A DNA stretch of 30,214 nucleotides from contig NZ_JBCMNM010000020.1 in the NCBI RefSeq assembly GCF_050459865.1, forward strand, positions 1 through 30,214. The letters run 5' to 3'. Both the position numbers and the translations under genes were made by a program. The notes beneath the pieces are model-generated. The model worked only from the letters and a program-made list of their open reading frames with translations. It searched no databases and was not told the DNA's origin. Source of the stretch: Rummeliibacillus pycnus (GTDB taxonomy: Bacteria; Bacillota; Bacilli; Bacillales_A; Planococcaceae). This document shows positions 14,666 through 28,458 of the stretch, one piece after another (position 1 is the first letter of the stretch; every line of letters starts with the position of its first letter).

Positions 14666-15613
14666 ATGGAGACACAGGAAAGGCTACAATCCATTATAAA
14701 AAATATAGAAAAAGTAATGATTGGAAAAAAACATATTGCTGATTTAAGTGTTGTAGCATTATTAGCAGAAGGACATGTTTTACTAGAAGATGTGCCGGGT
14801 GTAGGGAAAACAATGATGGTGCGTGCGCTTGCAAAGTCAGTAGGAGCTAATTTTAAACGTATTCAGTTTACACCAGATTTACTCCCTTCAGATGTAATAG
14901 GTGTATCCATTTATAATCCGAAAGATATGGAATTTCATTTTCGTCCAGGTCCAATTATGGGGAACATTGTATTAGCGGATGAAATTAACCGAACATCTCC
15001 AAAAACACAATCAGCTCTATTAGAGGGGATGGAAGAGGCAGCGGTAACCATTGATGGAGAAACAATGCAAATTCCAAAACCATTTTTTGTAATGGCTACT
15101 CAAAATCCGATTGAACATGAAGGGACCTATCCGCTTCCTGAAGCACAGTTAGACCGTTTTTTATTGAAATTGAAGATGGGTTATCCAAGTCTTGATGATG
15201 AAATTGAAGTATTACGTAGAGCAGAAGGAACACGCCCAATTGAGTCATTAAAATCCGTTGTTACGTTAGAAGAACTAAAGGAGTTACAGCAAGAAGTGAA
15301 AACTGTTCATGTTGATGAATTAGTTAAAGGCTATATTGTTGAGCTTGCAAGGGCGACTAGAGAACATCAATATGTTTACCTTGGCGCAAGCCCTCGTGGT
15401 TCAATAGCTTTAATGAAAGCATCGCAGGCATATGCATTATTAAAAGGTCGTCGATTTGTGACTCCAGATGATGTTCAATTTTTGGCACCATTCGTCTTTG
15501 CTCATCGCCTTATTTTAAAACCGGAAGCACGTTATGAGGGGATTACACCCGAAGAAATTATAGGACGCGTTATTATTAATACTAATGTGCCGATTAAAAG
15601 GACTTCGAATTGA
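14666..15613 (+). CDS. MoxR-family AAA+ ATPase (YeaC-like)
   Basis: Walker A 'DVPGVGKT', Walker B 'VLADEINR' and 'ATQNP.E.EGTYPLPEAQLDRF'. The RBS is 'caggagg'. Confidence 0.9.
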   Translation: METQERLQSIIKNIEKVMIGKKHIADLSVVALLAEGHVLLEDVPGVGKTMMVRALAKSVGANFKRIQFTPDLLPSDVIGVSIYNPKDMEFHFRPGPIMGNIVLADEINRTSPKTQSALLEGMEEAAVTIDGETMQIPKPFFVMATQNPIEHEGTYPLPEAQLDRFLLKLKMGYPSLDDEIEVLRRAEGTRPIESLKSVVTLEELKELQQEVKTVHVDELVKGYIVELARATREHQYVYLGASPRGSIALMKASQAYALLKGRRFVTPDDVQFLAPFVFAHRLILKPEARYEGITPEEIIGRVIINTNVPIKRTSN

Positions 15614-16830
15614 TGAAAAGATATAAGATTAGATGGCTATCACAAGCTATTACTCGTTTTGTAATGGTTATATTACTGTTAGTCATTACGCTTTGCTTTG
15701 CATTAATGCAAGGGGGATTTGTTAGCTGGTTTATCTTTTTCATGTTTTTGCCTTTTGCACTTTACTCCATCATGCTATTTTTTGTACCTTTAAAACAATT
15801 TTCGGTTGAAAGAACGATGCTTACAGGGTATTTGGAGCATGGAGATTCACTTCGGATGAAGATGGATTTGACTAGAAAATCAAGATTTCCATTACTGTAT
15901 ATGGTTATTCAAGAAAGTATGCCGAGTGAGATTTTCAATGAAGAAGCAGCAGATCAAACAAGGCATTTTTTTATGATGGGTATGAACAAGCAATTATCTT
16001 GGAACTATGAAATTCCTAATATGCCACGTGGTCATCATCAACTAGAAGGTATTGAATTAACAATCACTGATTTCTTTGGATGGGTCAAGAAAACAACATT
16101 ACTACCCGCTAAACGATCAGTGGTTGTTTATCCAAAGGTGACACACCTTATCTATACGCCACTCCGTTTAACCAAAAGTAGTGGTGCAGGGACGGCTCGT
16201 AATACCGCTGTTCGTGATACAACTATGGTATCTGGTATTCGTGAATATCAACCAGGAGATCGCATGTCTTGGATTCATTGGAAAACTTTTGCAAAGACCC
16301 AAAACTTGCAAACTAAAGAATTTGAGGATCAACAATCTCAAGAGATTTGCCTTGTTTTAGATGGGGCACCATCAGCACTATTTGAAGAACAAGTTGAGTT
16401 ATGTGCGTCGATATTATCAGCTGTTGTAAGTCAACATTTAAGTATGTCTTTTCTATTTGCAGGCGAAAAGCAATCGTATTTTGATCAAATTCAAACAGAA
16501 GAACAATTGCAGCGGGCAATGTATCAATTAGCGGGAATACAGTCTCAACCGATTGAAAAAATTGAGTATAAATATGGGCAGAATAATGTACTGTTAAATG
16601 CGACAATGATTTATTTTGTAACGAGTTCATTGACATCTGAGTGGCTTAACGTTTTGAAAAGAGTCTCTCGAAAATCACAAGGTGCTATTTGTTTTATTGT
16701 TCGAGCTCCTGCACAAAGTATTTCAGAGCATGAGCAGAAAATAGTAACGATTGCAAAGGAAAATGGTATTCTTGTATTTCCTATAACACCTCAACAATTT
16801 GCAAATACCTTTACGGAGGTGTTGAAATGA
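15613..16830 (+). CDS. DUF58-domain protein (YeaD-like), MoxR partner
   Basis: Two N-terminal TM helices and the DUF58 core 'IREYQPGDRMSWIHWKTFAK'. The ATG at 15613 abuts the moxR stop (tgATG). Confidence 0.8.
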   Translation: MKRYKIRWLSQAITRFVMVILLLVITLCFALMQGGFVSWFIFFMFLPFALYSIMLFFVPLKQFSVERTMLTGYLEHGDSLRMKMDLTRKSRFPLLYMVIQESMPSEIFNEEAADQTRHFFMMGMNKQLSWNYEIPNMPRGHHQLEGIELTITDFFGWVKKTTLLPAKRSVVVYPKVTHLIYTPLRLTKSSGAGTARNTAVRDTTMVSGIREYQPGDRMSWIHWKTFAKTQNLQTKEFEDQQSQEICLVLDGAPSALFEEQVELCASILSAVVSQHLSMSFLFAGEKQSYFDQIQTEEQLQRAMYQLAGIQSQPIEKIEYKYGQNNVLLNATMIYFVTSSLTSEWLNVLKRVSRKSQGAICFIVRAPAQSISEHEQKIVTIAKENGILVFPITPQQFANTFTEVLK

Positions 16831-19070
16831 TGGATTCAAAGGTATTGAGATGGACAGGCTTAATAGGCCTTTATCTTATTATTTTCTTGCTGTTAGTGGA
16901 ATGGCTAGTGCCAGTTGTGCAGCTTACAAATACTGGACATCTTGGCTTGTTTCTAATCTTCGTATTAATTTGTTTGGGGAGTAACATTATCAATTTAAAT
17001 GGCATAATGTCATTTATTATTAAGATTCTTTATGTAATATGGTTTTTGATGTACGTGTATATGGATACGACAGTATTTTCTATCGAAGGTTTAATGAAAA
17101 TAACTGACGAGTTTGTAAGTAGTATTCAAGCACTTATAGACGGAAATTGGGCAGGGGTAGCGGACTCGTTTCGTAGTATATTATTTTTCGTATTATTATG
17201 GATGACAATCTATTTGATCCATCACTGGCTAACGGTGAAGCATTCCGTATTATATTTCTTTTTAACAACTATTATATTTTTAAGCTTGTTAGATACTTTT
17301 ACAGAATACAATGCAAAATTTGCGATTATTCGTGTCATGGTACTTGGAATATTACTAATGGGTGTATTGTTTATCAATCGATTATTTAAAAATAGCCAAG
17401 TGAAATGGAAGCCAAAACATTATGCAATGTTGTTAATCCCGCTTATTGTCATGATTATTGGTAGTGCTGCATTTGCATATACCATGCCTAAAAAACAAGC
17501 GATGGTAAGTGTACCTAAGCATCTAGAAAACTTGATGAACTGGCAAAATGGTCAAAATGCAGGTATCGGGAAAATTGGTTATGTTGAAGATGACAGTACG
17601 CTAGGAGGGCCATTTGAAAAAGATAACCGTCCTGTATTTGAGGCAACTGCAAAAGAAAATCAATATTGGCGTGTTGAAACAAAGAATATCTATACAGGCA
17701 AAGGATGGGAACGCAAAGCAGGCGACATCTATGTTCATACCTTTGACTATGGTGAAGAGATTCCAATGACCATGAAACCTGGTAAAAAGAAGAATATAGA
17801 TGAAGCTACCATTACTTTGAAGAAAAACTATAAATTTATACTGCAGCCATATGGACTAAAAACAATTGATCAGCCAAATGATGAGAAAACCTTCTATATT
17901 GAAATTGACGGAGAAAAAATCCGCCCAACAATAAATGAGGGAAAGGTTCTTTTACCACACTATTCAATGTCCTATTCAACACCAGAATATAGCTTGAAGG
18001 CCTTACAAAGGACAAGAAAGTCTGATTTAAAGAAACTTCCGAAAGGTTATAAACAATATTTGCAACTTCCAGATTCTTTACCGAAACGGGTAAAGGAATT
18101 ATCTGTTGAAATAACGAAAGATGAGAAAAACTTATACGATAAAGCTAATGCAATCGTTTCATATTTTCAATACAACGGTTATAAGTATTCACGCACAGAT
18201 GTAGCGATTCCATCTAAAAAGCAAGACTACGTTGATCAATTCCTTTTCGATACTAAATCAGGCTATTGTGATAACTTTTCGACTTCTATGGTTGTTATGC
18301 TTCGTACATTAGGAATTCCTGCACGTTGGGTGAAGGGTTTCTCAGAAGGAAATGAGGTTCCGTCTAAGGATCCTACACGTCATTTTGTTGTAACCAACAA
18401 TAATGCGCATTCTTGGGTAGAAGCATATTTTCCTGGAATAGGTTGGATGGCTTTTGAACCTACAATTGGTTTTAATGGATTCGATAATGTATTAAATGAT
18501 GTAAAAGACAATCAAAATGAAGGTACGATCAATCCTAAACAAAAGGAAAATGATAAAGCAAGAGCAGAAAAGAAAAAGAAAAAGAAAGCAGAACAAAAGA
18601 AGAAGGAAAAACAAGAAAAAGAAAAAGCGAAAAAAGAAGAAAAGAAAAAACAAAAACAGGAAAAACAGAAAAAGCAAAATCAGAATCAAGCAACGAATCA
18701 TCAAGTGAATAAAGTGATGGTTATATCAGTCTTCATACTTATTATGTTGGCTATTCTATTCTATTTGACTCGTAGAAAGTGGATGCCGAAATGGTTATTG
18801 ATGAAATATCGCTTAAAGGGAAATCACCTTCAAATCGATAAACGATATGCAGATTTATTGAAACAACTTTCATTAATTGGATTAACAAAAGCACAAGGTC
18901 AAACTTTAGGAGATTTTGCAAAACAAATAGATAGTAAGTTCGGAACAAATCATATGAGTATTTTGACACAAGCCTACGAGGAAAGTCTTTATAGTAAAGA
19001 AGCACCAACAAGTAGTAAAGAAAAAATAATAGAATGTTGGAAATATTTAATCAATCGAACAACCGGTTGA
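16827..19070 (+). CDS. Transglutaminase-like domain membrane protein (YebA-like)
   Basis: ATGA overlap with the DUF58 gene. The protein has a multi-TM N-terminus and the transglutaminase-core Cys 'GYCDNFSTSMVVMLRTLGIPARWVKGF...NAHSWVEAY'. A K/E-rich linker is followed by a C-terminal TM. Confidence 0.8.
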   Translation: MMDSKVLRWTGLIGLYLIIFLLLVEWLVPVVQLTNTGHLGLFLIFVLICLGSNIINLNGIMSFIIKILYVIWFLMYVYMDTTVFSIEGLMKITDEFVSSIQALIDGNWAGVADSFRSILFFVLLWMTIYLIHHWLTVKHSVLYFFLTTIIFLSLLDTFTEYNAKFAIIRVMVLGILLMGVLFINRLFKNSQVKWKPKHYAMLLIPLIVMIIGSAAFAYTMPKKQAMVSVPKHLENLMNWQNGQNAGIGKIGYVEDDSTLGGPFEKDNRPVFEATAKENQYWRVETKNIYTGKGWERKAGDIYVHTFDYGEEIPMTMKPGKKKNIDEATITLKKNYKFILQPYGLKTIDQPNDEKTFYIEIDGEKIRPTINEGKVLLPHYSMSYSTPEYSLKALQRTRKSDLKKLPKGYKQYLQLPDSLPKRVKELSVEITKDEKNLYDKANAIVSYFQYNGYKYSRTDVAIPSKKQDYVDQFLFDTKSGYCDNFSTSMVVMLRTLGIPARWVKGFSEGNEVPSKDPTRHFVVTNNNAHSWVEAYFPGIGWMAFEPTIGFNGFDNVLNDVKDNQNEGTINPKQKENDKARAEKKKKKKAEQKKKEKQEKEKAKKEEKKKQKQEKQKKQNQNQATNHQVNKVMVISVFILIMLAILFYLTRRKWMPKWLLMKYRLKGNHLQIDKRYADLLKQLSLIGLTKAQGQTLGDFAKQIDSKFGTNHMSILTQAYEESLYSKEAPTSSKEKIIECWKYLINRTTG
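18535..18690 (+). repeat. Low-complexity purine-rich (AAG/AAA/GAA) tract encoding a poly-Lys/Glu/Gln linker inside the yebA-like gene
   Basis: Translates to 'KQKENDKARAEKKKKKKAEQKKKEKQEKEKAKKEEKKKQKQEKQKKQNQNQ'. It generates spurious ORFs in other frames. Confidence 0.8.
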
Positions 19071-19332: not shown

Positions 19333-20895
19333 GTGGAACTTTTGTCAGTAAGTACACAACTAATAAATCAAGAAAAAATCATCGTTCTTGATTTCGGTAG
19401 TCAATACAATCAATTAATTACACGTCGTATTCGTGAATTCGGTGTTTACAGTGAGTTACACCCACATACAATCACAGCACAAGAATTAAAAGATATGAAT
19501 GCTACAGGTATCATTTTCTCAGGTGGTCCAAACTCAGTTTATGACGACAATGCATTCAAAATCGACGAACAAATCTTTGAATTAGGCTTACCAATCTTAG
19601 GTATCTGCTACGGTATGCAATTAATGGCACATACTTTAGGTGGTAAAGTAGAAGCTGCGTCTCACCGCGAGTATGGTAAAGCAGAAATCAAAGTGCTTGA
19701 AGAAAACAAATTATTCGCTGATACACCAAAAGAGCAAGTTGTTTGGATGAGTCATGGTGACCTTGTAACAGCAACACCAGAAGGCTTCACTACAATTGCA
19801 ACAAGCGCTTCTTGCCCAATCGCTTCAATGGCAAACCCAGAACGCAAATTCTATGCTGTACAATTCCACCCAGAAGTACGTCACTCTGTATACGGTAATG
19901 ACTTACTTCGTCACTTCGCATTAGACATCTGTGGCTGCAAAGGCGACTGGTCAATGGCGAACTTCATCGAAATTGAAACAGAAAAAATCCGTAACATCGT
20001 TGGTGACAAACAAGTTCTTTGCGCACTTTCAGGTGGCGTAGACTCATCAGTTGTAGCGGTATTAATCCACAAAGCAATCGGTGACCAATTAACTTGTATG
20101 TTCGTAGACCACAACTTAAACCGTAAAGGTGAAGTTGAACAAGTTATGAAAACTTTCACTGAAGACTTCGATATGAAACTTATCAAAATCGATGCTCGTG
20201 AACGCTTCATGAACAAACTAAAAGGCGTGTCTGATCCAGAACAAAAACGTAAAATCATCGGTAACGAATTCATTTACGTATTCGACGAAGAATCAGCTAA
20301 ACTTACTGACATGGACTTCTTAGCTCAAGGTACTCTTTACACTGATATCATCGAGTCTGGTACAGCAACTGCACAAACAATCAAATCTCACCACAACGTT
20401 GGCGGTCTTCCAGAAGACATGAAATTCGAACTTATCGAACCACTTAACACATTATTCAAAGACGAAGTACGTGCACTTGGTTTAGAACTTGGTCTTCCTG
20501 AAGCAGTAGTATGGCGTCAACCATTCCCAGGTCCAGGCCTAGGTATCCGCGTACTTGGCGAAGTAACAGAAGATAAATTAGAAATCGTACGTAATGCAGA
20601 CTTCATCCTACGTGAAGAAATCAAAAAAGCTGGTCTTGATCGCGACATCTGGCAATACTTCTGCGTACTACCAGACATCCGTTCAGTCGGCGTTATGGGT
20701 GACGGTCGTACTTATGACTACGCAATCGGTATCCGCGGCGTAACATCAATCGACGGTATGACTTCTGACTGGGCACGTATCCCATATGACGTACTAGAAA
20801 AAATCTCTGTACGTATCGTAAACGAAGTAGATCACGTTAACCGCGTACTGTATGATATTACTTCTAAACCACCAGCTACTATTGAGTGGGAATAA
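19333..20895 (+). CDS. guaA: GMP synthase (glutamine-hydrolysing)
   Basis: The GATase domain has '[16 protein letters not shown]', 'GICYGMQ' and 'QFHPEV'. The PP-loop is 'LSGGVDSS' and the C-terminus ends 'KPPATIEWE'. The start may be the TTG at 19342, which has the RBS 'agaggtgg' 5 nt upstream, rather than the GTG at 19333. Confidence 0.95.
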
Positions 20896-20947: not shown

Positions 20948-21138
20948 TTTTGGTAACCATTTCGGTAACTATTGGAAGAATAAGTCTTTCTAAAACTAGA
21001 ACTTTTTGATTGGAAAGTTTATTTTGAACAAATATTATATAGCGAAAAGTGTTGTATTGAAAATAAAGATTTAATACTTACTTTAAGCCTAATGATCTAT
21101 GTATATGTTTTGATTTTTAGTCTATATCCTAATGTACA

Positions 21139-21167
21139 TAGATTAGGAGGTGTTTAAGTGGTATAAT
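21139..21167 (+). promoter_or_regulatory. Putative extended -10 promoter of the TIR/Macro/TIR operon
   Basis: 'TGgTATAAT' (TG at 21159-21160, TATAAT at 21162-21167) with a weak -35 'tagatt'. The right arm of the inverted repeat spanning 21088-21147 overlaps it. Confidence 0.45.
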
Positions 21168-21217
21168 TTTCACTATAATTAGTAAAAAATACATATAATA
21201 AATACTGGAGGTATAAT

Positions 21218-22078
21218 TTGTTTAGAGGATATAATTTGGATTTGTCTAATAATGAAAAACAGTCTTTTTTAGGAATAAGTGATCAAGAAATTGAAAACTA
21301 CGAGAACGAGCTAAAGAATCTAAAAAGCATATTAAAAAGTAAAGTCAACGACACTGTTGTATTACCAAGAGAAAAAGATGGTAAAATAGATGGTTCAAAA
21401 CTCATAGATGATTGGTTCCCAAGGCATAAATCAGATGTATTTATTTCTCATTCTCATAATGATACTAGAACAGCAAAGAGACTTGCTGTTTGGCTGAATA
21501 AAAACTTTGGACTAACAGTGTTTATTGATTCAATAGTATGGGGAAGTGCCAATGAGTTATTAAAAGGGATTGACAATGTATATAGCGTTTTAGAAAGAAA
21601 AGATGGTAATACTACCTATAATTATGACACAAGAAATTATACAACTAGCCATGTTCATATGATGTTGTCAACAGCCTTGAATGATATTATTGATCAAACG
21701 GAATGTCTAATATTTTTAAACACACCTGAGTCATTAAGTGTAAATGAAGCAAAAGATAAGAAAACTAATTCTCCATGGATTTACAATGAATTAAAAATAG
21801 CTTCTATTGTTAGAAAAATAGATCCTAGGAAATTAGAGTATAAAATGATTTTAGAAAAAAGTTATAGAGAATTTTCTCAACAGGAGCAAAGAAGTTTTGA
21901 TGCATTGTATCATGTTGATGATCAATTATCTAAAATGGAAAGTTTAAACGCAGATAGGTTACAGGAGTGGTTAAATAACTTTAATACAAGCTCAAATAAA
22001 GAATTTCATGCGCTTGATATTTTGTATTTTGGTAAGGAAGTATCTAAAGTGAGGAGATATTTAGTAAATGACAATTAA
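21218..22078 (+). CDS. TIR-domain protein (ThsB-like sensor/NADase) with N- and C-terminal extensions
   Basis: TTG start 6 nt after the RBS 'ggagg'. TIR hallmarks are beta-A 'DVFISHSHNDTRTAKRLAVWL', 'VFIDS', 'CLIFLNTPESL' and the catalytic-Glu helix 'SPWIYNELKIA' (the SxWCxxEL equivalent). Confidence 0.75.
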   Translation: MFRGYNLDLSNNEKQSFLGISDQEIENYENELKNLKSILKSKVNDTVVLPREKDGKIDGSKLIDDWFPRHKSDVFISHSHNDTRTAKRLAVWLNKNFGLTVFIDSIVWGSANELLKGIDNVYSVLERKDGNTTYNYDTRNYTTSHVHMMLSTALNDIIDQTECLIFLNTPESLSVNEAKDKKTNSPWIYNELKIASIVRKIDPRKLEYKMILEKSYREFSQQEQRSFDALYHVDDQLSKMESLNADRLQEWLNNFNTSSNKEFHALDILYFGKEVSKVRRYLVNDN

Positions 22079-22904
22079 AGTTAAATTTTTGGACAAAAGA
22101 ATACGGCAACAATTCTCAAAAATTGTGGCTACAGTTAGTGCAGTTCTTTCAGCGATATTAATTTTTTGTGAAATCCCTGATGAATGGAAAATTACAAGTG
22201 GAATTATTTTTCTTGTTCTCTTACTTGTAATATATTTCGTAGTTTGGGTTTATGCAAATAGATTAGCTGAAACTACTCTAAGTATAGGTGGAACTTCTGT
22301 ACAGATAAAAAAAGGCGATATTTTCAGAGAAGATGGCCTAAAAGTCATACCCTTCAACGAATATTTTGACACTATTGTTGATGATAGGATTATTGGAAAA
22401 AAATCTCTTAATGGCCAATATATTATAAAAATTTTTCCGGATGTTGATAAGCTATCTAAAAGAATAAAAGAAGATAAAGATTTAAATATTCCAGAAAATA
22501 TACTTTGCAAAAATGTTCCTAGAGAAGGAGGAACAACAAAGTATAAACTAGGAAGTTCGATTGTAATAGATGAATATGTGTTGACAGCATTTTCTAAATT
22601 TAATAATAAAAATGAAGCTGAGTTAACGATGACAGAATATATAAATTTCCTCCTACAATTTTGGAATGAAATTAATAGAGTTTATGCACAAAAAAGCGTA
22701 ACTGTTCCAGTTTTTGGGTCTGGAATAACAAGATTTAAGGGAGGATTTAATGAAATTGAGATTGATGAATTACTGAATATCATGCTTTGGACATTTAGAA
22801 TTAGTGAGACCAGGTTTAAGTATCCTGCAAAATTAACTATAGTTATCTACGGAGATTTATTTGATAAAATTAATTTATTTAGCCTTCAGGAGGAAATAGA
22901 TTAA
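22068..22904 (+). CDS. Two-TM + Macro-like domain protein (type II Thoeris ThsA-like effector)
   Basis: Overlaps the upstream gene by 11 nt and has the RBS 'gaggag'. The two TM helices are 'IVATVSAVLSAILIFC' and 'ITSGIIFLVLLLVIYFVVWVYA'. The soluble domain shows 'IKKGDIF...VIPFNEYFDTIVDDRIIGKKSLNGQ' and 'VPVFGSGITRF', patterns I associate with the ThsA-Macro (DUF6430) family. This assignment was not verified by a search. Confidence 0.6.
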   Translation: MTIKVKFLDKRIRQQFSKIVATVSAVLSAILIFCEIPDEWKITSGIIFLVLLLVIYFVVWVYANRLAETTLSIGGTSVQIKKGDIFREDGLKVIPFNEYFDTIVDDRIIGKKSLNGQYIIKIFPDVDKLSKRIKEDKDLNIPENILCKNVPREGGTTKYKLGSSIVIDEYVLTAFSKFNNKNEAELTMTEYINFLLQFWNEINRVYAQKSVTVPVFGSGITRFKGGFNEIEIDELLNIMLWTFRISETRFKYPAKLTIVIYGDLFDKINLFSLQEEID

Positions 22905-23467
22905 TGGCATATAGAAACGGAACGTACGTAGCGTTTGACGGACAAGCTACAACAGACCCAACAAAAAGTGATATGAAATATTATGGACTGCTTCAAAGAT
23001 GGAATCAAAATAAAAGTAATACTTTGAGCTTTAGTGACAGTCATAAAAAAACTCACCAAGTTAGAGATACAAGCTCAAAACTAACTTTGCAAAGAAGATT
23101 AATTGAGAGATTGGGAAATTCGAAAAACATGTTACTTATATTGTCTGATGATACTTCATGGGATAGAGGAATGCTAAATTTTGAAATTGAAAAAGCTGTA
23201 GATAAATTTTCCCTTCCTATTATTGTGGCGTATACAGGTTACAATTATATATTAGATCCCAAATCATTCAGCTCCAAGTGGCCAAAAGAATTAACTGCGA
23301 GAATTAGTAATGGAACTGCTAGATGTATCCATATACCATTTAAAGAGAAGGCTATTATGTCTGCAATTTCACAATTTAGTATTCATGGCACGGGGGATAA
23401 TATATTAACTGGTTCTTTAAATTATTACTCACGTAGTGCTTATCAAAATTGGGGATATATTCAGTAA
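22904..23467 (+). CDS. TIR-like protein, DUF1863/ThsB family
   Basis: The start overlaps the previous stop (taATG) and has the RBS 'aggagg'. Motifs are 'YVAFDG', 'YYGLLQRW', 'FSDSH' and 'MLLILSDDTSWDRGMLNFEIEKA' (a WxxxE-type catalytic Glu helix), followed by 'LPIIVAY'. Confidence 0.65.
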   Translation: MAYRNGTYVAFDGQATTDPTKSDMKYYGLLQRWNQNKSNTLSFSDSHKKTHQVRDTSSKLTLQRRLIERLGNSKNMLLILSDDTSWDRGMLNFEIEKAVDKFSLPIIVAYTGYNYILDPKSFSSKWPKELTARISNGTARCIHIPFKEKAIMSAISQFSIHGTGDNILTGSLNYYSRSAYQNWGYIQ

Positions 23468-23490
23468 TAACATGAATTTCTCACTTAAAT

Positions 23491-23534
23491 AAAACCAGAT
23501 AGCATAAAAATGCGATATCTGGTTTTATTTTTAT
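23491..23534 (+). terminator. Rho-independent terminator of the three-gene operon
   Basis: Stem 'aaaccagata'/'tatctggttt' followed by 'tattttt'. Confidence 0.7.
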
Positions 23535-23617
23535 AATATGTAGTATAAGTCTATTCAGATTTTTTATAATCTTTTCTCTTAAAATGTTGATTACCATTCC
23601 AGTTGTTCAAAGTTTTA

Positions 23618-23984
23618 TCAGAAGTTTTTAACACTAATTTTCCCGTTCATTTGACTAGCTATTTCACTATCAATTGTAGGATAGAGGTGTGAATGCGTTC
23701 CTAATGTAATTTGAATATCGGAATGTCCTAATCGTTTTTGTACAACAAGGGGGTTTGCATTTAATTCATTGATTAAAAAGCTTGTATGACTATGACATAA
23801 CCCTTTTGGTTGAATAGGGACAACATTGGCAATTTTCGCATGCCTTTTAATGATTCTCCTGATTGTCGATTTTTGTCAAAACATGAAATATTCTCAATCT
23901 AGCAACCCGATCTGGATTATTTTTAGTAAGACTAATATATGGTGTGTTCTGTTTGTTTTTTAAATATGATTGTATTTTCTCCAT
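23618..23984 (-). pseudogene. Tyrosine recombinase (phage-type integrase) remnant: C-terminal catalytic domain only, frameshifted
   Basis: My minus-strand translation gives 'IRRIIKRHAKIANVVPIQPKGLCHSHTSFLINELNANPLVVQKRLGHSDIQITLGTHSHLYPTIDSE...'. This is the box II region, but with 'LCHSH' where 'LRH(T/S)H' is expected and 'GTHSHLY' where the catalytic-Tyr 'GTYSHLY' is expected. An upstream piece, 'MEKIQSYLKNKQNTPYISLTKNNPDRVARLRIF', is in another frame. No N-terminal domain is present. Confidence 0.65.
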
Positions 23985-24087
23985 TGATTTCCCTCAATTA
24001 AACACTGAACACTTTCTATTTTGATTCTAATAACATCAGTATAGATAGAGTAGCTCTTAAAATTATTTAAAAGCTACTTAACTTTAA

Positions 24088-24372
24088 TTATCGATAGTTA
24101 TTTAGAACAATTCTTTTGCCTCTATTAATATCATCAATTAATAATGAGCTAGTTACATAGTGTCTCTTCACCTCAGAAAATCTCAAACCAATTACAGTGA
24201 ATTTAGCGTAATCATACTGCACGCTACCTTTGCCTGTAAGTCTCTCGTCAAGTTCTTCTTTAGCTTCAACCTGCTCTAAAATCAAAGGAATTTCTATTGA
24301 TGTACCACTTAATCTTTTACCTATTTCAGCTATTTTTCTAAGACCTTTTTCGTTTAATACTTTTGTAAACAT
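24088..24372 (-). CDS. Hypothetical protein (94 aa), no recognisable domain
   Basis: ORF with a strong RBS 'aggagg' 8 nt upstream. It lies 11 nt downstream of a small acidic ORF on the same strand. Confidence 0.5.
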   Translation of the reverse strand: MFTKVLNEKGLRKIAEIGKRLSGTSIEIPLILEQVEAKEELDERLTGKGSVQYDYAKFTVIGLRFSEVKRHYVTSSLLIDDINRGKRIVLNNYR

Positions 24373-24383
24373 TTCGTATCCTC

Positions 24384-24524
24384 CTAAAATTCATTTATTT
24401 CTTCAGTAATCTCATACCATTCATCACAATATTCAAGATAGCATTGATAATCTTCGGAATCTTGATTCTGCCATTCCTTTAGTTCTTCATCGATCATCAC
24501 AACCAAACTCCCTTCACTCTCCAT
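24384..24524 (-). CDS. Small acidic protein (46 aa from the ATG at 24524; more likely 37-38 aa from the GTG at 24500 or ATG at 24497)
   Basis: Not in the ORF track. My translation is 'MESEGSLVVMIDEELKEWQNQDSEDYQCYLEYCDEWYEITEEINEF*'. An internal RBS 'gaagggag' precedes the GTG/ATG at 24500/24497. The stop lies 11 nt before the next gene's ATG. Confidence 0.4.
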   Translation of the reverse strand: MESEGSLVVMIDEELKEWQNQDSEDYQCYLEYCDEWYEITEEINEF

Positions 24525-24566
24525 AATTAAGCTTATAACCTGCAATTTATTTTCTAGACACCTACT

Positions 24567-24684: not shown

Positions 24685-24999
24685 TTAACTATTTTCGACT
24701 GTTTTCAGTATGTGCCTTGTAATATCAGCGGTAGGAGTAGTATGGTTTAAAACCATTTGTACTTTATAATTTGTATATAATTCTCTTTCTATTCTAAAGT
24801 TTATTTTGACATAATCATTATCATTAATTGTTTGTGTATAATCTGGAACATGATAGTTATCTACTTGCTTTTTTATATGTTCAATCAAATTATCTGTAAT
24901 TGTCTGATTGGTTCTTATCATAGTTACTTTATAAAGTTCGGAAAGTGTCTTTTTAACTCTTACAGTAACCATCATATGATTGTCTTTAATATCCTTCAT
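24685..24999 (-). CDS. Putative DNA-binding regulator with two tandem ribbon-helix-helix-like repeats
   Basis: The RBS is 'aaggagg'. There is an internal duplication: 'VTVRVKKTLSELYKVTMIRTNQTITDNLIEHIKKQV' versus 'VKINFRIERELYTNYKVQMVLNHTTPTADITRHILKTV'. Each copy has a beta-strand/helix/helix pattern. No search was run. Confidence 0.45.
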   Translation of the reverse strand: MKDIKDNHMMVTVRVKKTLSELYKVTMIRTNQTITDNLIEHIKKQVDNYHVPDYTQTINDNDYVKINFRIERELYTNYKVQMVLNHTTPTADITRHILKTVENS

Positions 25000-25314: not shown

Positions 25315-25668
25315 TTGTTGTATAGCGTAATTACTTATCCACCTGCAACAATTGTGTTTCAAATAGGACTTTCCTTTATTCACGTTTTTCATATGAAAGG
25401 GAGGTCTTTTTTTATTCCTAGAATTATTGAATTGATTGATGGTTTCAAAATGAATCAAGACATCATTGGGCGTAAACCGAAGTATGTACAGATGTTTATA
25501 TGGCGGTTAAACCGTTGGAGAGAATTCATGGAAATAGAATTTAACATCGAATTTGTAGAAGCGGTTGAGCCAATTCATGATCTCGTATTTACAATGTCAT
25601 GTCATTTGGTTGAACGCTTCAATGGAGAACGTTTCTTAATCACTTCAAAGAATATCGTGGCGATATAG
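25315..25668 (+). CDS. Hypothetical protein; the start is very uncertain and may be only about 72 aa from the ATG at 25450
   Basis: Open frame followed by a terminator. A good RBS 'aaagggagg' (about 25395-25403) is not followed by a canonical start at a suitable distance. No recognisable motifs. Confidence 0.3.
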   Translation: MLYSVITYPPATIVFQIGLSFIHVFHMKGRSFFIPRIIELIDGFKMNQDIIGRKPKYVQMFIWRLNRWREFMEIEFNIEFVEAVEPIHDLVFTMSCHLVERFNGERFLITSKNIVAI

Positions 25669-25817: not shown

Positions 25818-25835
25818 TATACACTTTAGTGTATA
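25818..25835. promoter_or_regulatory. Perfect 8+8 palindrome overlapping the probable -10 of the NDT/TIR-like gene
   Basis: 'TATACACT tt AGTGTATA', immediately followed by and overlapping 'tataaat', 15 nt upstream of the RBS 'gggag'. Confidence 0.5.
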
Positions 25836-25849
25836 AATGTTGGGAGCGA

Positions 25850-26743
25850 ATGATGGTGACAATAGAAATTACAGAACAAAATAATGATGTAGTAGAGAGA
25901 GTAGAAAAACAAACTTTAGTTGTAGGTTTAATCATGCCTATATCAAATGCAGAAGGTTTTCCAATAGGACATTGGGAAGAAGTTAGAAAAATCATTGAGG
26001 AATCATTAAATGAAATAAAGGAATACCATATTGAAGCCAGTATGGTAAGTGAATCCGAAGATACTGCAATTATTCAAAAGAATATCATTCAACGTATTTA
26101 TAAAGATGATATTGTAATTGTTGATGTAAGCTCAAAAAATCCTAATGTAATGTTTGAACTTGGTTTACGTCTAGCATTTGACAAACCTTTTATTCTTCTG
26201 AAAGATGATTTAACTGATTATGTTTTCGACATTTCTTCAATCTATCACATCAACTATCGCAGAGATTTGAGATATAAAGATATTGTAGATGTTAAAAATG
26301 AAATCAAGCGAAAAATAGTTGCAACATACAAAAAATCTTTAGAGGAAGATAGTATGTATTTAAAAGATTATGGCACATTCAAAGTAGCGGAATTGGAAAA
26401 TACTGAATTACCTATTAAAGATTATATGGAGAAGATGTTTAGCGATATTAGAACAGAAATCAAAGGTATTAGAAAAGATAACAATAATAGTGCCTTATCA
26501 AATAATATGCAAAAAATAGAAAAAAACAAGAAATATCATTTGGAAAATAGGATTTTAAATTTAGTTAGTGAATATCTTTTAGAAAACCCATCGTTAGATA
26601 CAACGGAGTTTTATAATAAGAATCATGAAATACAGCATTTAATAAGAGATGATAAAGAAGTAGGTATGTTCGCAACTAGTATTAAAGAAGTTGAGAATAT
26701 TACAATTGAAGTGTTTAGTAAGTTGGATATCTTACCTTTTTAA
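25850..26743 (+). CDS. Nucleoside 2-deoxyribosyltransferase-like / TIR-like Rossmannoid domain protein with a helical C-terminal half
   Basis: I set the start at the ATG at 25850/25853, after the RBS 'gggag'. The N-terminal domain has 'VVGLIMPIS', 'HWEEVRKIIEE' and 'DIVIVDVSSKNPNVMFELGLRLAFDKPFILLKDD'. This is the 'D-x-S..NpNV.fElG.a.a..Kp.i.l' pattern with a candidate catalytic Glu, as seen in NDT-like/TIR-like folds. The assignment is from memory. Confidence 0.45.
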   Translation: MMVTIEITEQNNDVVERVEKQTLVVGLIMPISNAEGFPIGHWEEVRKIIEESLNEIKEYHIEASMVSESEDTAIIQKNIIQRIYKDDIVIVDVSSKNPNVMFELGLRLAFDKPFILLKDDLTDYVFDISSIYHINYRRDLRYKDIVDVKNEIKRKIVATYKKSLEEDSMYLKDYGTFKVAELENTELPIKDYMEKMFSDIRTEIKGIRKDNNNSALSNNMQKIEKNKKYHLENRILNLVSEYLLENPSLDTTEFYNKNHEIQHLIRDDKEVGMFATSIKEVENITIEVFSKLDILPF

Positions 26744-27105: not shown

Positions 27106-27582
27106 ATGGAGGTAATGATGATGTACCAAGTTACTCAAAATTTACTTAAATGTATTTCGATTCGTTTTGCGGGATTAAAACCTTCGAGTTTGACCGAAGA
27201 TGCAGGTGTTTACGTTCTGCTCCTGCCTAAAAGTAATTTACAGAACAATGAATCTTTGAAGAAATTAGATGACTACCTTAGGACAATAGAATATGTAGGA
27301 CAAGAGAAAGGGGATTATCTATTATATGTAGGTCGAACTACCAATAGACGTGTTCGCTTATATCAAAATCACTTACAAGGTACTAAAGCAACAGCACGTT
27401 TAAAAGTAGCCTTAGTTTCTCATGGTATTGTTGCCACTGAAAGTGATGCAAAAGAGTTTATAAAGAAATATTGTAATTTTAAGTTTCTAACTTTACCTAA
27501 CGAAACTACGAAAGAGCAATATGACTTTAAGTTAGCGGAGCATCAAGTTAAGGTAGACTTAAAACCTGTATTTATTGATTAA
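27106..27582 (+). CDS. GIY-YIG-like nuclease-superfamily small protein
   Basis: 'GVYVLLL' ... 'YLLYVGRTTNRRVRLYQNHLQG' ... 'LAEHQVKVDLKPVF' corresponds to GIY / YIG / Arg / His / Glu, with an unusually long insert of about 35 aa between the GIY and YIG strands. The RBS 'ggagg' (27108-27112) implies the true start is the ATG at 27118 or 27121. Confidence 0.5.
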   Translation: MEVMMMYQVTQNLLKCISIRFAGLKPSSLTEDAGVYVLLLPKSNLQNNESLKKLDDYLRTIEYVGQEKGDYLLYVGRTTNRRVRLYQNHLQGTKATARLKVALVSHGIVATESDAKEFIKKYCNFKFLTLPNETTKEQYDFKLAEHQVKVDLKPVFID

Positions 27583-27831: not shown

Positions 27832-28458
27832 CTAGTCTTTAATCGTAACACCAAGCATTATAGCAAATGCAGCGGCTTGATCGAAGCGAATTGATAATCC
27901 CTTTGCTAAGGCAGGTGTTAATTTAATATCAATAAAATCACAAGTTGAAAAATCTAAACTACTTAATTTGCTCTCTGTAAAATCAGCTAATTGTAAATTG
28001 CATTTTAAAAATTCTACTTTATCAAAATGAACATCCTGAAAGAAAGCCTCCTCTAATTGATTTTCTTCAAAACCAACTAGATTCATTTTGCTTTCAGAGA
28101 AAATGGAATAATTCATCAAACAATCTTTCCATAATACATTTTTGAATTTACAGCCGATAAATTGTGATCCTATTAACTTACAAGACTGAAACTGACAGCG
28201 ATAAAATATTGATTTGTTGAAGTCAAAGTTAGAACAATCGCATTTTTTGAAAATGATATCTAAGAATTCCATTTGAGTGTAATCGTTTGTTAAGAATCGG
28301 CAATTTTCAAATTGCACTTCTTGTAATTGTTTTCTTCCGAAGCGACAATCAACTTCACAATCGATTAGATGTGTATTTTCTTCAATTTCCTCAAGCATAA
28401 TAGAATCATTCTGAATGGTTTGTGTATAGTTTTTTGATGGTTCCATTATTTTGTTCAT
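27832..28458 (-). CDS. Pentapeptide-repeat protein, Qnr/MfpA-like
   Basis: 208 aa with consecutive A(D/N)LXX-type pentapeptides: 'CRFLTNDYTQMEFLDIIFKKCDCSNFDFNKSIFYRCQFQSCKLIGSQFIGCKFKNVLWKDCLMNYSIFSES...'. The C-terminus is Qnr-like: 'LSIRFDQAAAFAIMLGVTI'. Confidence 0.75.
   Translation of the reverse strand: MNKIMEPSKNYTQTIQNDSIMLEEIEENTHLIDCEVDCRFGRKQLQEVQFENCRFLTNDYTQMEFLDIIFKKCDCSNFDFNKSIFYRCQFQSCKLIGSQFIGCKFKNVLWKDCLMNYSIFSESKMNLVGFEENQLEEAFFQDVHFDKVEFLKCNLQLADFTESKLSSLDFSTCDFIDIKLTPALAKGLSIRFDQAAAFAIMLGVTIKD

Follow-up and report, generated by a model that had tools for sequence, protein, structure and literature searches.

We analysed a 30,214-nucleotide stretch of Rummeliibacillus pycnus DNA (contig NZ_JBCMNM010000020.1), referred to below as the window, in which three co-oriented and overlapping genes (genes 1 to 3, Table 1) lie downstream of guaA. 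PADLOC recognizes their products over full length as ThsB, ThsA and ThsB, and we classify the locus as an intact three-gene type II Thoeris system consisting of a divergent, probable TIR sensor, a membrane effector with a Macro domain and a second, TIR-like sensor. This bears out a sequence-only reading of the same DNA, which had proposed a type II Thoeris-like cassette whose transmembrane (TM)-Macro effector is flanked by two unrelated TIR sensors. Judged from its proteins, this is very likely a functional-looking type II Thoeris system. Our overall reading, to which we give a probability of about 0.8, is that of a horizontally acquired operon with the composition thsB(sub-family 2)-thsA(TM-Macro)-thsB(sub-family 9), expressed as one transcription unit between a promoter and a terminator of its own, in which gene 3 would provide the signal for the Macro domain and gene 1 would act as a second sensor.

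The three open reading frames (ORFs), both of their overlaps and the sequence motifs quoted earlier are all present as described. Genes 1 and 2 overlap by 11 nucleotides (22068-22078), and genes 2 and 3 share a single nucleotide within TAATG at 22902-22906. The single terminator proposed 3' of the operon is also found: a hairpin at 23487-23530 followed by a U-tract folds with -19.6 kcal/mol (z = -7.3), and 0 of 200 shuffled sequences were equally stable. A simple terminator scan did not list this hairpin because of a bulge. Of the proposed extended -10 promoter, the element TGgTATAAT itself is there; the consensus promoter scan did not call it because it comes without a good -35 element, and it is a promoter candidate by sequence match only. 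guaA ends at position 20895 and is followed by a GC-rich inverted repeat with a T-run that, by its sequence, resembles a guaA terminator, which makes the cassette probably a transcription unit separate from guaA.

Table 1. Features of the Thoeris operon and of the gene remnant directly downstream of it
Feature	Position in window	Strand	Description
Gene 1, thsB, accessory type	21218-22078	+	TTG start, 286 amino acids
Gene 2, thsA (ThsC in 2025 nomenclature)	22068-22904	+	ATG start, 278 amino acids
Gene 3, thsB, core type	22904-23467	+	ATG start, 187 amino acids
Candidate extended -10 element, TGgTATAAT	21159-21167	+	About 50 nucleotides 5' of gene 1; read from sequence
Intrinsic terminator	23487-23541	+	Hairpin and U-rich tail; RNA fold
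Decayed tyrosine-recombinase (integrase) gene	23590-23990	-	C-terminal catalytic region intact, upstream part with stop codons

Gene 2 had been read as two TM helices joined to a ThsA-type Macro domain, and the Pfam search proposed for it confirms this: PF20016 (ThsA_Macro) matches residues 78-261 with an E value of 1.8e-57 (194 bits, cutoff 25). The PADLOC ThsA model aligns end to end (1.1e-109). Two hydrophobic segments are found at the N-terminus, at residues ~15-38 and ~39-68, and hydrophobic TM segments are absent from genes 1 and 3. Among structures in the PDB, gene 2 matches the crystallized Macro domain of Escherichia coli ThsA (EcThsA, 8v6q) at 8e-65 and a second crystallized Macro domain, 8r66, labelled 'Thoeris protein ThsA', at 1e-52. 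Published ligand-contact residues of ThsA were mapped onto gene 2 through the PDB alignment. Residues D83, N96, D100, L113, N114, S175, S217, G218 and T220 of EcThsA correspond to D84, N97, D101, L114, N115, S176, S218, G219 and T221 in gene 2. Likewise, the residues D100, N133, Q135, S194, R240 and Y277, through which Bacillus amyloliquefaciens ThsA (BaThsA) contacts histidine-adenosine diphosphate ribose (His-ADPR), correspond to D84, N115, Q117, S176, R222 and Y261. The sole mapped contact that is not kept is K262 of EcThsA, replaced by Leu. We thus assign gene 2 as an effector in which two TM helices at the N-terminus precede a ThsA-type Macro domain at the C-terminus.

The proposal that gene 3 is a TIR-like DUF1863/ThsB protein was likewise supported by the suggested search, in which Pfam PF08937 (ThsB_TIR) gives 2.7e-14. 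The PADLOC ThsB model PDLC00421 covers the full length (1.4e-65), and the PDB matches are 3hyn (4.4e-16), the ThsB structure 9uv0 (7.5e-15) and EcThsB2, 8v6t (3.7e-11). Y8 and E94 of gene 3 occupy the alignment positions of the active-site Tyr-Glu pair in 9uv0 and EcThsB2; in EcThsB2 this pair is Y8/E89 (Shi et al. 2024, PMC11204291). The alignment to 9uv0 stops at residue 174, and the C-terminal tail of gene 3 is Tyr-rich. In sub-family 9 (Shi et al. 2024) the active-site Tyr sits on strand βA, near enough to reach the catalytic Glu, and a C-terminal tail folds back onto the TIR. In the classification of Shi et al. (2024, PMC11204291) the Tyr-Glu site is confined to sub-families 7 to 9, the largest being 9, and always goes with a TM-Macro effector; the His-ADPR-producing ThsB of B. 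amyloliquefaciens is put in the Tyr-Glu class, and the sub-family 9 class is linked to His-ADPR production. By these alignments gene 3 is classified as a PF08937 ThsB of the 'sub-family 9' type with a predicted Tyr8/Glu94 active site.

Gene 1 is more divergent. Its product is 100% identical to a 'hypothetical protein' at NCBI (WP_430309676.1), and NCBIfam holds no model for any of the three cassette proteins. The earlier view of gene 1 as a TIR protein stands in that the PADLOC ThsB family PDLC00430 matches residues 1-275 (2.5e-88); as a TIR domain in its own right it is less secure, with Pfam TIR_2 below threshold (7.4e-5; 23.7 bits, cutoff 28) over residues 74-108 only and Foldseek comparisons that do not reach significance. 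A direct PDB sequence search with gene 1 gave nothing meaningful. The full-length AlphaFold2 model, with a predicted local distance difference test score (pLDDT) of 72, had no significant Foldseek match, and a model of the core from a deeper alignment reached a pLDDT of 85 with no improvement in Foldseek significance; its match list consists mostly of TIR domains, none of them significant, with TM-scores of 0.3-0.4. The family itself is large: at least 1,687 proteins of comparable length in the protein database are related to gene 1. In alignments of 36 and 101 members, F75, S77, H78, S79, H80, E162, W187 and E191 are invariant, and so is the motif SPW-x-x-x-E. The Glu that had been picked out earlier in SPWIYNELK is E191, the invariant one. 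Phe75 and Glu191 (SPWIYNE) form the putative active site. The W-x-x-x-E arrangement is one that we take to resemble that of bacterial TIRs forming cyclic ADPR (cADPR) isomers, such as AbTir.

The helical regions flanking the TIR core of gene 1, previously described as featureless extensions, turn out to be conserved family-wide. W66-F67-P68, W251, L266 and L269 are invariant outside the core, and because such residues lie in both regions and the PADLOC model spans residues 1-275, we regard these regions as integral parts of a conserved family and not as add-ons. Gene 1 is 58% and 48% identical, over 95-97% of its length, to the cluster representatives P0011 and P0035, whose 90% clusters contain ELB67023.1 and ETU24521.1, respectively. 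Both proteins are listed as sub-family 2 by Shi et al. (2024), and we assign gene 1 to ThsB 'sub-family 2' because clusters of its homologues hold these members.

The combination of sensors, which the sequence-only reading had thought might be undescribed, is already catalogued. Table S2 of Shi et al. (2024, PMC11204291), a classification of 426 ThsBs from the set of Doron et al. (2018), lists the same trio for Enterococcus faecium EnGen0048, where the consecutive genes encode ELB67023.1 (sub-family 2), ELB67022.1 (TM-Macro ThsA) and ELB67021.1 (sub-family 9), and the same pattern for Enterococcus faecalis EnGen0413 (ETU24521.1, ETU24520.1 and ETU24519.1). Structural and genetic studies also exist for type II systems of E. 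coli with two ThsBs. The present locus adds a further case of a known configuration, one more type II Thoeris in a well-populated class of which none has been studied in the genus Rummeliibacillus. A gene 1-type ThsB, a ThsA_Macro and a PF08937 ThsB occur together in 16 loci. These include Bacillus cereus, two Enterococcus lineages, Listeria marthii, Paenisporosarcina indica, Lederbergia citrisecunda, Bacillus sp. FJAT-29790, the conjugative plasmid pDC01-1 of Carnobacterium viridans and five more genome or metagenome contigs, in two gene orders. Restriction-modification genes, recombinases or integrases adjoin most of them. The idea that the cassette always stands beside guaA was rejected, as guaA was found at no other locus. 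The three-gene form thus moves as a unit among chromosomes, islands and plasmids of Bacillota. Compared with the EnGen0048 and EnGen0413 systems, the R. pycnus cassette has the same three components, and Enterococcus loci of the same cluster share its gene order; those systems are inserted beside an integrase and type I restriction-modification genes, whereas the R. pycnus cassette lies beside guaA. To our knowledge, neither the Enterococcus cassettes nor this one have been tested experimentally.

We surveyed the partners of gene 1 relatives using one genome per species; 277 genomes contained a relative, and 80 loci were kept. A TM-Macro ThsA is present in only 3 of these loci. In 55 of the 80 a protein of ~135 amino acids with three TM segments (3-TM) is encoded immediately downstream, and 8 have a SIR2-SLOG ThsA. 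A stand-alone SLOG protein is present in a few loci and additional ThsB-like TIRs in many. The gene 1 family is thus mostly paired with effectors other than Macro, an observation that is new here. The 3-TM partner (for example at L061:6809-7225) matches the PADLOC candidate PDC-M50A at 1.2e-49 and belongs to no Pfam family; it is probably an effector of a TIR signal. An assignment to DUF2270/ThsF or SLATT/ThsH was attempted and gave no consistent Pfam match: DUF3278 matched 8 and DUF2270 matched 2 of 42 members, all weakly. Table S2 gives a mixed SIR2 and TM-Macro listing for sub-family 2 (Shi et al. 2024, PMC11204291), with TM-Macro effectors in 7 of 24 entries by our own count, and one TIR cluster can serve several Thoeris types (Yirmiya et al. 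2025). In agreement with both, sub-family 2 is, by genomic association, an effector-promiscuous sensor family with at least four effector types. The 3-TM pairs (PDC-M50) and the type I Thoeris systems with sub-family 2 ThsBs share the full-length TIR family with gene 1 (37-48% identity), including the same invariant Phe/Glu and W-x-x-x-E residues, and differ from the R. pycnus cassette in the effector, which is 3-TM, SIR2-SLOG or SLOG, and at residue 110, which is Tyr, His or Asn and not Ser.

Relatives of gene 1 were also seen on 124 plasmid records. One further family member, a ThsB with 40% identity and Tyr110 followed by a small downstream gene (L098, PQ189363.1:1347-2195), adjoins the integrase gene of a Vinavirales element (14 kb) from Vibrio cyclitrophicus, which shows that the gene 1 family occurs on a virus-like element as well.

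Residue 110 distinguishes the Macro-linked members of the family. In gene 1 it is Ser (window positions 21545-21547), within the motif D-S-x-V-W-G-S-A, and we place it by inference in the loop after strand βB, a classical TIR-TIR contact region. In a first count, Ser was found in 13 of 13 Macro-linked homologues and in 0 of 74 others. Five Ser-type proteins whose context was unknown beforehand all adjoin a ThsA_Macro and a PF08937 ThsB (5/5), and one Asn110-type control (n = 1) does not. With plasmid and phage-collection loci added, the final count is 16 of 16 Macro-linked and 0 of 77 other homologues, the latter carrying mostly Tyr, then His or Asn. That Ser110 marks the Macro-linked form of the gene 1 family is, like the partner distribution, new here: in 93 loci the identity of one loop residue is enough to tell, with no errors, whether the partner is Macro. 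Shared ancestry of one Macro-linked clade, which would make the signature trivial, was tentatively rejected, since a neighbour-joining tree places the Macro-linked homologues in at least three lineages; the nearest neighbours of these lineages carry other effectors in this tree, which has no support values and is indicative only. The signature speaks for a functional link between gene 1 and the Macro module, and against gene 1 being a passenger. It is possible, if rather doubtful, that a switch in this loop retunes sub-family 2 from 3-TM, SIR2-SLOG or SLOG partners to the Macro receptor, either through a changed ADPR-derived product or through an interface with the ever-present sub-family 9 ThsB. 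If true, the cassette would connect one receptor to two TIR active sites of different chemistry, one with Phe/Glu and W-x-x-x-E and one with Tyr/Glu, and might bring to light either another natural ligand for ThsA-Macro or a mechanism of hetero-TIR activation in type II Thoeris. Residue 110 offers a cheap, testable handle on what sets the signal chemistry or the choice of partner of TIRs in bacterial immunity.

Two characterized type II systems are close enough for comparison. The system of E. coli CFT073/ATCC 25922 (EcThsB1, EcThsA and EcThsB2) shares with the R. pycnus cassette a closely similar TM-Macro ThsA, both being 278 amino acids long, a ThsB2 of the same Tyr-Glu class as gene 3 and the presence of a second ThsB that is, or for gene 1 is predicted to be, a canonical TIR. 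It differs in that second ThsB. EcThsB1 consists of a bacterial PH domain and a TIR domain and is assigned to no sub-family by Shi et al. (PMC11204291); gene 1 is built differently, and outside the TIR core no resemblance between the two could be detected. In ATCC 25922, thsB2 is moreover encoded on the opposite strand. The system of B. amyloliquefaciens Y2, which signals through His-ADPR, likewise has a ThsB of the Tyr-Glu class, and all six BaThsA pocket residues are identical in gene 2. Y2 has a single ThsB, whereas the R. pycnus cassette has an extra sub-family 2 ThsB upstream.

A likely mechanism for this arrangement is the following. Upon phage infection gene 3 would use nicotinamide adenine dinucleotide (NAD+) to make a signal of the His-ADPR type, which would bind in the conserved pocket of the ThsA Macro domain. 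Binding would lead to oligomerization of the Macro domains and clustering of the two TM helices, and the resulting membrane damage or growth arrest would stop phage propagation; growth arrest without cell death has been described for one E. coli type II system, so that the abortive infection proposed in the sequence-only reading would be one of the possible outcomes. Gene 1 would add a catalytically competent TIR from another lineage and widen the range of phages sensed, making an ADPR-based ligand accepted by the same Macro domain. The core pathway rests on cited literature, and we infer the trigger, the products, the independent action of the sensors and the cellular outcome.

Within this scheme, gene 1 has the less certain role. 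We consider the odds roughly even that it acts as an independent second sensor-synthase whose product is accepted by the same Macro pocket. This view is suggested because its catalytic residues are invariant, because its relatives occur elsewhere as the sole TIR and because Ser110 is coupled to the Macro effector. In 33 of 57 3-TM loci the gene 1-type protein is the only TIR found by our probe set, so gene 1 homologues presumably signal alone there. The main rival explanation is cooperative sensing, in which gene 1 would be an adaptor that binds a phage protein and recruits or activates gene 3 as the sole signal synthase. Such a division of labour has a precedent in the type I Thoeris of Staphylococcus aureus, where the major capsid protein is bound by ThsB1, which in turn brings in the cyclase ThsB2, and it would fit the TM-Macro loci of the gene 1 family, all of which (16/16) also contain a PF08937 ThsB, so that the gene 1-type ThsB is never found alone with ThsA. 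The Ser110 loop, commonly a site of TIR-TIR contact, could then reflect an interface with the partner ThsB. However, Glu191 and the W-x-x-x-E motif are invariant in gene 1 homologues, Macro-linked ones included, the family manages without another detected TIR in the 33 3-TM loci, and entries for S. aureus and S. argenteus in Table S2, which fall into sub-families 6 and 3, indicate a different sub-family membership for the ThsBs of S. aureus. We regard the adaptor role as unlikely.

Several observations weigh against the preferred scheme. The TIR fold of gene 1 is not statistically confirmed: the best Foldseek match of the core model is the TIR domain of TLR1, with an E value of 0.08 and a probability of 0.89, and a profile of the gene 1 family matches PdTIR, AbTir and BtpA in the PDB only weakly (E values of 0.3-0.5). 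We found no published experiments on this cassette, nor on any ThsB of sub-family 2. In vitro EcThsB1 made ADPR as well as imidazole/histamine conjugates, and not His-ADPR, and in E. coli ATCC 25922 thsA and thsB2 were enough for defence, with thsB1 being toxic; an accessory ThsB therefore need not feed ThsA. Gene 1 relatives also sit with SIR2-SLOG effectors, which respond to 3'cADPR, and these relatives presumably make 2'cADPR or 3'cADPR, neither of which was bound by ThsA Macro domains.

The E. coli results would also suit a third role, in which gene 1 is an autonomous NAD+-consuming TIR, or signals to an effector encoded elsewhere, and only travels with ThsA and ThsB: EcThsB1 is an NADase, is dispensable for the defence given by thsA and thsB2, and the gene 1 family is promiscuous in its partners. 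Against it stand the 11-nucleotide overlap with thsA, an adjacency kept across distant hosts in two gene orders, and a Ser110 that tracks the Macro effector perfectly, the last being difficult to reconcile with an unconnected gene; we consider this explanation improbable.

The preferred reading of the cassette as a horizontally acquired operon draws on its surroundings. The GC content is 0.28-0.31 over ~21.0-28.5 kb of the window, compared with 0.33-0.41 in the flanks, and this low-GC island of ~8 kb lies between guaA and a xanthine/uracil-family (purine-type) permease gene. Directly 3' of the operon terminator stands the decayed tyrosine-recombinase gene (Table 1). No direct repeats of the attachment-site (att) type were found to bound the island, only short repeats that are probably due to chance, and no transfer RNA gene was found in the window. 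The cassette is best read as horizontally acquired cargo of a decayed integrative element. With a broken integrase gene adjacent and att repeats not found, the cassette could itself be a decaying, non-functional remnant of the dead mobile element. All three of its ORFs are, however, full length compared with their family models, their catalytic and ligand residues are intact, and an independent assembly carries the identical stretch from gene 1 through thsA into a truncated gene 3, which together make decay of the cassette highly improbable.

The remainder of the island contains several genes of less certain character. At 25829-26743 (+) a 304-amino-acid protein has a nucleoside 2-deoxyribosyltransferase (NDT)/TIR-like core followed by ~140 uncharacterized amino acids. 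It matches Pfam PF05014 at 6e-4 (below cutoff), the PADLOC 'TIR effector' of the cyclic oligonucleotide-based antiphage signalling system (CBASS) at 1.4e-7 and phrog_3634 at 1e-17, with weak similarity to the cytidine monophosphate (CMP) hydrolase BlsM. It is a third gene of the TIR/NDT superfamily in the island and possibly a separate defence gene. Between the integrase remnant and this gene sit four small ORFs (24088-24372, 24384-24545, 24685-24999 (-) and 25315-25668 (+)) for which Pfam, PADLOC and PHROGs gave no significant match. The far end of the island holds a 158-amino-acid ORF (27106-27582, +), which matches GIY-YIG weakly (2.3e-3, below cutoff), and a 208-amino-acid pentapeptide-repeat protein (27832-28458, -; PF13599, 7e-46). 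On the other side, 5' of guaA, the stretch 14666-19070 (+) encodes a MoxR-type AAA ATPase, a DUF58 protein and a transglutaminase-like membrane protein, a housekeeping context.

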